Shown piece after piece: positions 4,229-6,264 of a stretch of 6,495 nucleotides of DNA (positions within the stretch are counted from its first letter, which is position 1; each line of letters opens with the position of its first letter). A program made the position numbers and the translations under genes. The notes beneath the pieces were generated by a model that worked only from the letters and a program-made list of their open reading frames with translations, was not told the origin of the DNA and did not search any database. The stretch is from a virus (taxonomy: Duplodnaviria; Heunggongvirae; Uroviricota; Caudoviricetes), in the IMG/VR virus record IMGVR_UViG_2681813272_000008; one strand, given 5' to 3'.

Positions 4229-4702
4229 TTGTCGGTCAGGTTACGTAGTGAACCTCTGGCAGGGGACTGATGATTCATCATTCTGGTGTTGTAAATATCT
4301 CTTCGGACAACTTACAAAATATTCTAAGCAAACCCCGGGAACACACTCTTAACTGCCTTGGCTGGCGGTTTTTTGTACAGCGCTCGGTATGTGTGAGCTG
4401 GAAATCAGATTTTGCATGGACTGGAATCATGCTGTTATTTAGGGGCGAAGAACTGGCTTTTTCTTCCGCCTTCTCACCAGTAACGATTAGAAAAATAATG
4501 AAATGCCCCCCTCCGGGGAGGAGGACCGTAGAAAAAAGGACCCGCCAGCAATCTGAGTAGCGAAAGCTGTTCATCCCCAATGTTTTTGCTGGCGGGTAAA
4601 GTTCCTCATGAATTAAGAATGCTACGCGATCTTTTTTAATGGAAATGAAAATTATTGTCAATTAGTCGTGCGTGTTTTTTCATACAATATTGGTAAAGGT
4701 GA
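4229..4702 (+). repeat. 474-bp direct repeat, copy A (partner 5791-6264), upstream of the truncated IS911
   Basis: Base-by-base comparison at constant offset 1562: identical to copy B except substitutions at 4272 and 4275 and inversion of the 34-bp segment 4552-4585. Right edge abuts the IS911 internal breakpoint. Confidence 0.9.
4540..4597. repeat. 12-bp inverted repeats (ACCCGCCAGCAA / TTGCTGGCGGGT) around a 34-bp segment, orientation A
   Basis: Left arm 4540-4551, inner segment 4552-4585, right arm 4586-4597. The inner segment is the exact reverse complement of the one in copy B (6114-6147). On the - strand the hairpin is followed by a T-run (+ strand AAAAAAGG at 4532-4539). Confidence 0.9.
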
Positions 4703-5467
4703 GTAACCCACCACCGGCATCCATTCGTTCTTCAGACTCCTGAAGAAGCGTTCCATTGGGCTGTTATCCCAGCAGTTTCCGCGCCGGCTCATACTCTGTC
4801 TGATCTGGTATCGCCACAATAACTGCCGGAACTGCCTGCTCGTATAATGACTGCCCTGATCGCTGTGGAACATCACCCCGCCGGGCTTACCACGGGTTTC
4901 CCATGCCATTTCCAGCGCTTTCATGGTGAGCCTGCTGTCCGGCGAGAACGACATGGCACAGCCCACTGGTTTTCTTGCGAACAGGTCGAGAACAACGGCG
5001 AGGTACGCCCAGCGCTTACCCGTCCAGATATAGGTCACATCACCGCACCACACCTGATTTGGCTCGGTCACGGCGAACTGCCTTTCAAGGTAGTTAGGGA
5101 TAGCAACATGTTCATGACCACCACGTTTATACCGGTGAGTCGGCTGCTGACAGCTGACCAGCCCCAGCTCTTTCATGAGCCTGCCAGCAAGCCAGCGTCC
5201 CATCTGGTAGCCTCTCCGGGTTGCCATTGTGGCGATGCTTCTTGCTCCGGCCGAACCGTGGCTGATGCCATGTAGCTCAAGTACCTGACTGCGTAATACA
5301 GCCCGTCTGCCGTCTGGTTTTTCAGGACGGTTTTTCCAGTATCTGTAGCTGCTGCGATGAACCCCGAACACATGGCAGAGTGTGACCACAGGATAATGCG
5401 CTCTGAGTTTCCCGATTATCGAGAACTGTTCAGGGAGTCTGACATCAAGAGCGCGGTAGCCTTTTTT
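4658..5467 (-). pseudogene. IS911 OrfB (DDE transposase) frame, C-terminally truncated and fused to 14 codons of repeat sequence
   Basis: -1 frame after the slippery site reads [18 protein letters not shown]... with [14 protein letters not shown] and NSPMERFF. After PVVGY (junction 4702/4703) the frame continues as [14 protein letters not shown]-stop, encoded by the end of repeat copy A. Confidence 0.8.
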
Positions 5468-5718
5468 AATATTTCATTCTCCATTTCAATGCGTTGTAGC
5501 TTTTTCCTCAGCTTACGTATTTCGATTTGTTCTGGTGTTATCGGAGAGGCTTTTGGTGTTTTGCCCTGACGCTCATCACGCAGTTGTTTGACCCATCTTG
5601 TCATTGTGGAAAGGCCAACATCCATAGCTTTGGCGGCATCTGCCACCGTGTATTTCTGGTCAACAACCAGTTGAGCGGATTCGCGTTTAAACTCTGCGCT
5701 AAAATTTCTTTTTTTCAT
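5416..5718 (-). CDS. IS911 OrfA (transposase N-terminal DNA-binding protein), 100 aa
   Basis: Translation [53 protein letters not shown]...[19 protein letters not shown] matches IS911 OrfA as recalled; the listed ORF start at 5754 is an upstream in-frame extension. Confidence 0.85.
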
Positions 5719-5754
5719 TGGAGCACCTGTGTTGTTCTGAGGTGAGCATATCAC

Positions 5755-5790
5755 CTCTGTTCAGGTGGCCAAATTCAGTGTGCCACTTCA
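5755..5790 (-). repeat. IS911 left terminal inverted repeat (IRL)
   Basis: Reverse complement of 5755-5790 is TGAAGTGGCACACTGAATTTGGCCACCTGAACAGAG, ending in the IS3-family TG...CA terminus. Directly abuts the first base of repeat copy B. Confidence 0.8.
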
Positions 5791-6264
5791 TTGTCGGTCA
5801 GGTTACGTAGTGAACCTCTGGCAGGGGACTGATAATGCATCATTCTGGTGTTGTAAATATCTCTTCGGACAACTTACAAAATATTCTAAGCAAACCCCGG
5901 GAACACACTCTTAACTGCCTTGGCTGGCGGTTTTTTGTACAGCGCTCGGTATGTGTGAGCTGGAAATCAGATTTTGCATGGACTGGAATCATGCTGTTAT
6001 TTAGGGGCGAAGAACTGGCTTTTTCTTCCGCCTTCTCACCAGTAACGATTAGAAAAATAATGAAATGCCCCCCTCCGGGGAGGAGGACCGTAGAAAAAAG
6101 GACCCGCCAGCAAAAACATTGGGGATGAACAGCTTTCGCTACTCAGATTGCTGGCGGGTAAAGTTCCTCATGAATTAAGAATGCTACGCGATCTTTTTTA
6201 ATGGAAATGAAAATTATTGTCAATTAGTCGTGCGTGTTTTTTCATACAATATTGGTAAAGGTGA
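5791..6264 (+). repeat. 474-bp direct repeat, copy B (partner 4229-4702), between IS911 IRL and the holin-proximal terminator
   Basis: Same comparison as copy A. Carries the imperfect palindrome TGATAATGCATCA (5830-5842) and the opposite orientation of the 34-bp segment. Confidence 0.9.
6102..6159. repeat. Same 12-bp inverted repeats with the 34-bp inner segment in orientation B
   Basis: Left arm 6102-6113, inner segment 6114-6147 (AAACATTGGGGATGAACAGCTTTCGCTACTCAGA), right arm 6148-6159. Confidence 0.9.

Follow-up and report, generated by a model that had tools for sequence, protein, structure and literature searches.

The insertion sequence IS911, a member of the IS3 family, leaves target duplications of 3 bp on simple transposition, and it is also known to insert in one-ended fashion by means of surrogate ends. 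Loop inversion by template switching, with the stems of the hairpin left intact, is a described class of mutation (Monttinen & Loytynoja 2022, PMC8794818). Small RNAs are known from the late regions of lambdoid prophages, such as AgvB, AsxR, Esr41, and STnc100 of the Rfam database, and in pathogenic Escherichia coli the class II holin-lysozyme operon is directly preceded, in antisense orientation, by the genes of the small RNAs PasA and PasC (Pearl Mizrahi 2021, PMC8550237; Zhu, Shabalina & Storz 2026, bioRxiv 10.64898/2026.05.13.724894). The window analyzed here, a stretch of 6,495 nucleotides from a virus of the Caudoviricetes (IMG/VR record IMGVR_UViG_2681813272_000008), carries at the same place two direct repeats with a truncated IS911 between them.

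On the plus strand, an array of four tRNA genes (3782–4092; a CAT Met/Ile2-type gene, Arg-TCT, Thr-TGT, and Gly-TCC), recognized by ARAGORN, Rfam, and the RefSeq annotation of a single-copy relative, precedes the duplicated region, as it does in all relatives. It is followed by a spacer (4093–4228), the first repeat (copy A, 4229–4702), the IS911 fragment on the minus strand (4703–5790, from nt 1088 down to nt 1), and the second repeat (copy B, 5791–6264). The repeats are 474 nt each, lie at an offset of 1562, and have exactly the coordinates given in the original prediction. Beyond copy B stands a hairpin followed by a T-run, resembling an intrinsic terminator (6268–6294, plus strand) and closely followed by the class II holin gene (start at 6335). 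As had also been predicted, copy B adjoins the IRL terminus of IS911 (5790/5791), and copy A adjoins an internal breakpoint at IS911 nt 1088 (4702/4703). The identity of the two repeats reaches into 4227–4228/5789–5790 (CA) too, a coincidence with the terminal CA of IS911.

The IS911 fragment corresponds to nt 1–1088 of a 1249-bp reference copy, with 2 mismatches (99.8% identity). The terminal IRL sequence, TGAAGTGGCACACTG..., is present, and the last 161 bp are absent, including IRR and the final 51 transposase codons. The orfA frame is found at 5416–5718, and orfB, lacking its last 51 codons, reads on into copy A. Because IRR is absent, the remnant is a dead fragment, incapable of moving by itself. 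The fragment is flanked by 474-bp repeats instead of a 3-bp target duplication, an arrangement that simple transposition of IS911, as already noted in the original prediction, cannot explain. It is one base apart from the intact IS911 copies located at the same junction in other genomes, and at least two from the other full-length copies compared; a SNP at nt 833 is private to the window.

Comparison with relatives identifies the duplicated "module" as the native intergenic region between the tRNA array and the holin gene, not an element. This region is single-copy in the same prophage in many Shigella-type and E. coli genomes; the proposed check on whether a single copy is the normal state between tRNA array and holin terminator returned 16 single-copy loci with the native junctions on both sides. 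The spacer-module junction of these 16 loci is that of the window at 4228/4229, which on this comparison is ancestral and unrearranged, and the junction of copy B with the terminator (6264/6265) is likewise native. The relatives have the same backbone without the extra 1,562 bp: from ORF6N to holin they measure 1,744 bp, versus 3,306 bp here. The earlier view of the module as a discrete, unexplained element is not sustained: its left border is the IS911 insertion point and its right border a blunt non-homologous joint, and the homology of the relatives runs straight through both. In native sequence, the foot of the holin terminator hairpin lies 3 nt beyond the rearrangement breakpoint. About 27% of complete E. 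coli genomes have the right two-thirds of the module conserved upstream of lambdoid lysis cassettes, and this conserved part is also found on ColV-type plasmids, beside iss. The carrier genomes have 2–4 module copies each.

Once a 34-nt hairpin loop is flipped back, copies A and B are equal at 472 of 474 positions, and all their differences amount to two substitutions and one exact 34-nt reverse complement. The substitutions (4272, G in copy A and A in copy B; 4275, T and G, respectively) both fall inside 4268–4280, which in copy A is a perfect 13-nt palindrome, TGATGATTCATCA, and in copy B (5830–5842) reads TGATAATGCATCA. The A/G form pairs better with the upstream arm at 4207–4237 (84%, versus 77% for the G/T form). 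Both forms occur as alleles elsewhere: the unoccupied loci of the same prophage carry G/T, although A/G also exists unoccupied, and copy B is 100% identical to a single-copy locus (L074) and to two IS911-linked copies (L029 and L030). The two substitutions look like templated changes, yet as alleles they are probably older than the joint. The other difference lies in a hairpin of the minus strand (4540–4597 in copy A), where perfect 12-bp stems (4540–4551 and 4586–4597) enclose the loop at 4552–4585. This loop is the exact reverse complement of 6114–6147 in copy B, between perfect inverted repeats and with its length unchanged, as expected for loop inversion by template switching. All 66 other instances examined have the loop as in copy B, so that the ancestral orientation is that of copy B and the flip is private to copy A; in a spread sample of about 1,540 E. 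coli records, nearly all rows with single-piece alignments across the hairpin also show the orientation of copy B. A site-specific invertible switch of the Hin/Fim type was rejected, as there is no adjoining recombinase ORF and no flipped instance among the others. The copies had been described as near-identical and since diverged; what separates them would instead be two pre-existing alleles from single-copy loci plus one inversion event, with no drift.

The junction between IRL and the module, as at 5790/5791, is present in four other assemblies, two of which have a full-length IS911, including the 161-bp tail missing here. All four of these occupied modules (4/4) carry A/G, the allele of copy B, and L029 holds both parental configurations with matching alleles on one scaffold of one genome. 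We did not find, among the IS911-occupied loci, a simple-insertion ancestor with the tRNA spacer abutting IRR, and the intact IS911 copies at this site in L035 and L041 have no matching 3-bp repeat; the history of the occupied parent was therefore itself rearranged. The draft scaffold L030 (IMG/VR UViG_2671180430), apparently a separate draft assembly, is a 100% match to the window, with one break precisely at the first base of the flipped loop (4551/4552) and another directly before the private IS911 SNP (nt 833). An assembler faced with the same composite would be expected to break at these two points, which is an indirect indication. The junction 4702/4703 had no match in 5,426 E. coli genomes, species-representative genomes, metagenome contigs, and IMG/VR, and two exact-protein look-ups, one across the joint and one across the flipped loop, retrieved no record of the composite or of the flip-specific ORF. 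Because neither was found elsewhere, the composite rests on one assembly and the indirect pattern of L030.

Taken together, we favor, as a probable though far from certain explanation, the joining of two parental copies, one unoccupied and one occupied by IS911, which would make the arrangement an ordinary rearrangement scar in an IS-rich, Shigella-type lambdoid prophage. The relatives show the first step, in which an intact IS911 lay with its IRL against position 5791 in an A/G prophage copy. This occupied copy would then have been joined to an unoccupied G/T copy, which forms the backbone of the window, by one non-homologous break-and-join, in which IS911 nt 1088 of the occupied copy met the base that, in the unoccupied copy, lies 3 nt upstream of the holin terminator hairpin. 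The product would run from the spacer through copy A, the truncated IS911, copy B, and the terminator to holin, with a net gain of 1,562 bp. Two prophages may have been joined by a deletion or an exchange, or an excised circle may have reintegrated by homologous recombination. Finally, template switching during replication, in the hairpin of copy A with its 12-bp stems, may have flipped the 34-nt loop. We know of no specific enzyme behind a blunt joint of this kind, lacking microhomology, and this counts against the explanation.

A rival reading, which takes up the circle model of the original prediction, starts from a single IS911-occupied locus, from which a 1,562-bp segment (IS911 nt 1088–1 plus the adjacent 474 bp) would have been excised as a circle or mis-replicated and returned by homologous recombination. 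Copy A would later have gained G/T, either by a double substitution templated by the palindrome or, through gene conversion, from another prophage. Its topology is compatible with the window; one template-switch event could yield both substitutions, since G/T gives a perfect 13-nt palindrome (mechanism in PMC8794818), and the other module copies of a carrier genome are possible conversion donors. It requires, however, the native spacer to the left of copy A, and no observed IS911-occupied locus has the spacer on the IRR side, as well as an extra event recreating exactly the allele typical of unoccupied loci. We therefore consider the duplication of a single locus unlikely: a circle or unequal exchange still stands among the possible routes, but between two different parental copies. 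An event catalyzed by the IS911 transposase, by one-ended transposition or a surrogate end, would account for IS911 adjoining the joint, and one-ended insertion with surrogate ends is part of the repertoire of this element. At 4702/4703, however, the module (...AGGTGA) meets GTAACCC..., or ...GGGTTAC when the IS side is read outward, so that neither side is an IS terminus, has a terminal CA-3', or resembles IRL or IRR, and the fragment lacks IRR and the C-terminus of the transposase. With no IS-end chemistry at the joint, this route, also raised in the original prediction, was rejected as extremely improbable.

The absence of both the 4702/4703 joint and the flipped loop from all other sequences searched, together with the lack of microhomology, would also suit an assembly artefact, that is, a chimeric joint or a repeat mis-resolved between two prophages and a multicopy IS911; the loop inversion would then have arisen by error in the consensus or in polishing. 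Against it, L030 breaks at exactly the two positions private to the window, the flanking alleles are coherent with real parental loci, and assemblers, to our knowledge, do not typically produce an exact reverse complement of 34 nt between perfect stems; we regard an artefact as very unlikely. Selection for a functional duplication, with two small-RNA gene copies of which the flipped one serves as a decoy, its loop being the perfect complement of the native one, is barely credible. The loops of the two predicted minus-strand RNAs are indeed complementary over all 34 nt, and the strong conservation of the loop suggests a function. Among more than 60 instances inspected and about 1,500 aligned, however, the window alone has the flip, and copy A loses 56 bits against the family model (109.5 bits, versus 165.4 bits for copy B), which looks like damage, not design.

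No convincing ORF had been seen in the module, and the searches agree: its 96/97-aa and 127-aa ORFs have no Pfam or PHROG match and are not preserved in an 87%-identical homologue. A 10-codon minus-strand ORF was also dismissed as a gene: although retained, it lacks a ribosome-binding site, and nearly every change in it is non-synonymous. The RNA-family search proposed in the original prediction gave no Rfam match inside 4229–4702 or 5791–6264 at E ≤ 1 with permissive filters, and a literature search by sequence strings returned nothing relevant. The hairpin loop is the best-conserved part of the region. Around 1,370 short megablast matches suggested that the 58-nt hairpin might be an independent mobile mini-element; this idea was abandoned because the flanks of the matches are diverged homologues of the module flanks on the opposite strand, and the comparison indicates that the hairpin is merely the best-conserved core of the region.

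Most likely, the conserved right part specifies a so far undescribed small RNA of about 100 nt, antisense to the late operon and ending at the hairpin. The candidate unit of copy B, the native form, spans 6092–6223 on the minus strand, with a putative −35 box at 6218–6223, a −10 box at 6195–6200, a guessed start near 6187, a Fur-box-like sequence at 6203–6221, the hairpin at 6102–6159, and a T-run at 6092–6101. The corresponding predicted unit of copy A is at 4530–4661, also on the minus strand (−35 TTGACA, 4656–4661; −10 TAAAAA, 4633–4638; Fur-box-like 19-mer, 4641–4659; T-run, 4530–4539). The family form is kept in copy B, whereas copy A has an altered version that is probably non-functional. 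Structural covariation for the RNA fold is negligible, the family being too conserved for this test. A small RNA repressed by Fur, in the manner of RyhB, would be expected to have a Fur box over its promoter. Compared with the Fur-box consensus (GATAATGATAATCATTATC), the L068-type variant matches at 17/19 positions, with 0/2000 shuffles above 15; the site in the window matches at 14/19, a value that about 2% of shuffles reach. A bolder proposal, which we consider quite unlikely, is that the hairpin unit, in its E. coli chromosomes and beside iss, would be an undescribed antisense small RNA gene, perhaps iron-responsive through a promoter Fur box in most variants, and that the window would hold the native gene and a loop-complementary variant 1.5 kb away as a ready-made decoy pair.

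All in all, the finding is an ordinary one that offers two modest curiosities. The 474-bp repeats, a by-product of an IS911 insertion and one illegitimate joint, do not belong in catalogues as a new mobile or phage module. Intact IS911 copies exist at the same insertion point, whereas here the IRR end is cut at nt 1088, and, unlike the target duplications of IS911, the flanking repeats would be two alleles of the target region, not products of transposition.

For RNA biology, the unit is a widespread, strongly conserved non-coding sequence directly upstream of lambdoid holins and, on virulence plasmids, beside iss. Its layout is that of the PasA-type prophage small RNAs, beside the holin-lysozyme operon and with a predicted 3' stem-loop and poly-U; PasA, PasC, and the candidate unit share a TTGACA box, a short leader, and a 3' hairpin with a GCCAGC stem followed by a U-run. 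A small RNA of this type would be expected to be expressed as an Hfq-dependent transcript. The candidate differs in its much larger structured hairpin loop and in its distribution (ExPEC chromosomes, ColV-type plasmids, and Shigella-type prophages), and kinship to PasA, PasB, PasC, and PasD was rejected: BLAST at word size 7 against the Pas loci gave matches to the holin CDS only, and the best covariance-model match there had 8.5 bits (E 3.7). AgvB, AsxR, Esr41, and STnc100, although also encoded in lambdoid late regions, are among the families without a match to the module even at the permissive threshold. PapR, a UPEC small RNA targeting papI, was discarded too; such an RNA should pair almost perfectly with papI +74 to +96 over about 22 nt, and the best stretch reached 12/14 nt, elsewhere in papI.

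For mutation biology, the window offers a natural example of two paralogous copies that differ at palindromes only. As in the template-switch mutations described earlier (PMC8794818), the loop is exactly reverse-complemented, the perfect stems are untouched, and the length is kept, and the clustered double substitution perfects a short palindrome, in the G/T form here. The inverted loop of 34 nt is much longer than the loop inversions catalogued in rRNA, mostly of 4 nt and up to 7–8 nt in that study, and, unlike those cases, the event is found in one of two paralogous copies, so that the ancestral and derived states stand side by side.

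The window is a late-regulatory region of a lambdoid prophage, with the genes in the order replicative helicase, RusA, Q antiterminator, a cluster of small-RNA motifs, an ORF6N protein and then four tRNA genes (3782–4092), followed by the feature under study, a terminator (6268–6294) and a class II holin gene starting at 6335. The motif cluster, located between the genes for the Q antiterminator and the antirepressor-like ORF6N protein, gave strong matches to the Rfam families c4-a1b1 (2576–2628), isrK (2589–2665), C4 antisense RNA (2691–2774), and sRNA-Xcc1 (2908–2991). This stretch (2576–2991) has the appearance of a C4 antisense immunity cassette of the P1/P7 type inside a lambdoid late-regulatory region, and it also resembles the IsrK arrangement of Salmonella Gifsy-1.

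A repeat finder and a base-by-base comparison confirmed two 474-nt direct repeats at an offset of 1562, copy A (4229–4702) and copy B (5791–6264). The original prediction had observed these repeats correctly and interpreted them in part rightly, but it missed what separates them: two substitutions (G in copy A and A in copy B at 4272; T and G, respectively, at 4275) and one exact loop inversion, by which 34 nt of copy A (4552–4585) are the exact reverse complement of 6114–6147 in copy B. The loop is bounded by 12-bp perfect inverted repeats, ACCCGCCAGCAA and TTGCTGGCGGGT, and once it is flipped back the copies are identical at 472 of the 474 positions.

The check proposed with the original prediction, for a single copy of the module at this position in related prophages, was clearly positive. 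Escherichia coli CFSAN029787 has one module, preceded by the same tRNA array and followed by the same terminator and holin gene, and this layout was also found in ten chromosomes (4.7–5.0 Mb) encoding an identical ORF6N protein. In those ten, the ORF6N-to-holin distance is 1,744 bp, versus 3,306 bp in the window, an excess of exactly 1,562 bp, or one module plus the IS911 fragment. Because sixteen single-copy loci, including one in a Shigella flexneri chromosome, show both native junctions (4228/4229 and 6264/6265), copy A has kept the left one and copy B the right one, and the only new junctions in the window are 4702/4703 and 5790/5791. In diverged relatives, homology crosses both module borders uninterrupted, so the left border simply marks the position of IS911, and the right border the breakpoint. 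The module is non-coding, as predicted, and it is not a discrete element; the duplicated DNA is an ordinary intergenic region in two pre-existing alleles.

The sequence between the copies (4703–5790) is IS911 on the minus strand, nt 1–1088 of the 1249-bp reference copy with two mismatches. The predicted limits were correct: the IRL terminus lies at 5790, abutting copy B at 5791, and the end of copy A (4702) is joined to the internal nt 1088, with no microhomology at this joint (4702/4703). The last 161 bp, comprising the IRR and 51 transposase codons, are missing, and the truncated orfB (4658–5389, minus strand) continues across the joint into copy A, gaining 14 foreign codons. The IRL/module junction (5790/5791) occurs in four IMG/VR contigs, and two of the four (L035 and L041) have a full-length IS911 that retains the 161-bp tail with its IRR. 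Since these two differ from the window fragment by one base, as against 2–11 positions for the other full-length copies compared, the site held an intact IS911 before truncation. No IS911 copy at this junction is bordered by the tRNA spacer at its IRR or flanked by a matching 3-bp duplication, so those occupied loci are also rearranged. In E. coli VL7S7, an independent full-length IS911 (4405–5655 of the comparison sequence L006), in the same orientation as that of the window, lies a few bases past the holin gene of a sister prophage; therefore, this small late-region neighborhood has been struck by IS911 more than once.

The A/G state of copy B was present in all four IS911-occupied modules, those of L029 and L030 being 100% identical to copy B, and the G/T state of copy A in unoccupied loci of this prophage backbone. 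The exact copy-B allele is also found unoccupied, with the native spacer present (L074, 100% over 5789–6495), and a single scaffold of one genome (L029) carries an unoccupied G/T locus together with an IS911-occupied A/G locus. Both substitutions are therefore old alleles present in other loci, contrary to the proposal that the copies had diverged since the duplication. Contigs of 0.5–0.7 kb in many draft assemblies (L078–L083 and similar) start exactly at the allelic site (5834/5837), which suggests that genomes with two module alleles are common and that short-read assemblies routinely break there.

The simplest account is that an unoccupied copy supplied the left arm of the window and an occupied copy the right arm, the two being linked by a single non-homologous joint, module end to IS911 nt 1088. 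The joining may have been a deletion or an exchange involving two prophages, or the excision of a 1,562-bp circle followed by its homologous reintegration. The breakpoint precedes the foot of the holin terminator hairpin by 3 nt in native sequence, a position at least compatible with a break provoked by structure. There is no indication of transposase chemistry at 4702/4703, or of the aberrant one-ended transposition offered as a route in the original prediction, as the joint has no IS end, or anything resembling one, on either side. Overall, this is a familiar kind of IS-associated rearrangement scar. An assembly artefact might be invoked, as the joint was absent from all the collections searched (E. 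coli genomes, species-representative genomes, metagenome contigs, and IMG/VR) and the ORF reporting the flip was not on record in an exact-protein look-up. We consider it improbable, however, given the breaks in the gapped draft scaffold L030: one piece is 100% identical to the window from 4127 up to 4551, ending exactly at the base that precedes the flipped loop, and another begins exactly one base after nt 833, the single IS911 SNP private to the window. Breaks at both places are what an assembler would produce if the L030 genome contained this composite together with ordinary copies, and L030 is thus indirect support for a real composite.

Both substitutions fall within a 13-nt palindrome (4268–4280 in copy A, 5830–5842 in copy B), which is perfect in the G/T form, TGATGATTCATCA, while the A/G form pairs better with an upstream arm (4207–4237; 84% versus 77% complementarity). 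The allelic site thus holds two competing quasipalindromes, one local (G/T) and one with the arm 30 nt upstream (A/G), and for this reason each allele resembles a templated correction toward a different partner. Relative to its flanks, the loop had the orientation of copy B in 66 of the 66 other instances inspected, and the hairpin aligned in a single piece in nearly all the matches listed for a spread sample of ~1,540 E. coli records. By this comparison, the inversion in copy A is derived and, among the instances examined, unique. A recombinase-driven switch is unlikely, as no recombinase is encoded close by and no other flipped loop was found among these instances. In E. coli, inversion between short inverted repeats is known from older genetics. 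Loop inversion between perfect stems via replication template switching is a described mutation class, with published loops of 4–8 nt (PMC8794818); the present one is unusually long and clean, a modest curiosity.

The right two-thirds of the module (5954–6303; 4392–4702 in copy A) is ~85% identical to a widespread block, present in ~1,460 of 5,426 complete E. coli genomes and in ~640 places on plasmids, always immediately preceding a class II holin or the remnants of a lysis cassette (an Rz fragment in Nissle 1917, iss/bor on ColV-type plasmids). The ColV-type plasmids with the block beside iss bear genes for iron uptake as well, among them iroB. The best-conserved part is a hairpin with its loop, followed by a run of six Ts on the minus strand but not on the plus strand. 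On the minus strand, an invariant TTGACA lies ~60 nt upstream of the hairpin, with TAAAAA 17 nt beyond, and the native loop folds into an inner stem of 8 bp capped by a GAAA tetraloop, leaving UCCCCAAUGUUU single-stranded (z = -3.8). The inner stem has two G.U pairs, and in one variant a third pair also changes to G.U; these pairs exist only on this strand. From the hairpin, T-run, promoter-like boxes, and strand-specific fold, we propose a candidate antisense small RNA of ~100 nt. The family is too conserved to show more than negligible covariation. Its covariance model scored copy B at 165 bits and copy A at 110 bits, so the flip most likely damaged the copy A version. Transcription of IS911 would enter the copy A unit in the sense direction, reaching its hairpin terminator. 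A Fur-box-like 19-mer occupies a fixed place in the block (4641–4659 and 6203–6221) and overlaps the -35 box of the candidate on the minus strand. It agrees with the Fur-box consensus at 17/19 positions in some E. coli prophage variants (L068, ~3749–3767) but at only 14/19 in the window; for the 17/19 variant, none of 2,000 shuffles exceeded 15.

This widespread candidate small RNA, not previously described, is likewise a modest curiosity. PapR was excluded as its identity, and the Rfam models AgvB, AsxR, Esr41, and STnc100 gave no match to the module. PasA, a prophage small RNA of EPEC ending in a GCCAGC-stem terminator, has the same layout, being on the opposite strand directly upstream of a holin, with no link to the candidate by BLAST or covariance model. 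Upstream of the holin of E2348/69 PP4 (L073, ~1186–1300, minus strand), a CDS annotated as hypothetical covers a TTGACAATAATGATAAT box, resembling the promoter box of the module, and then a GCCAGCGCAGA-stem hairpin and a T-run. This unit appears to be a third, sequence-unrelated version of the layout in which an antisense hairpin RNA precedes the holin.
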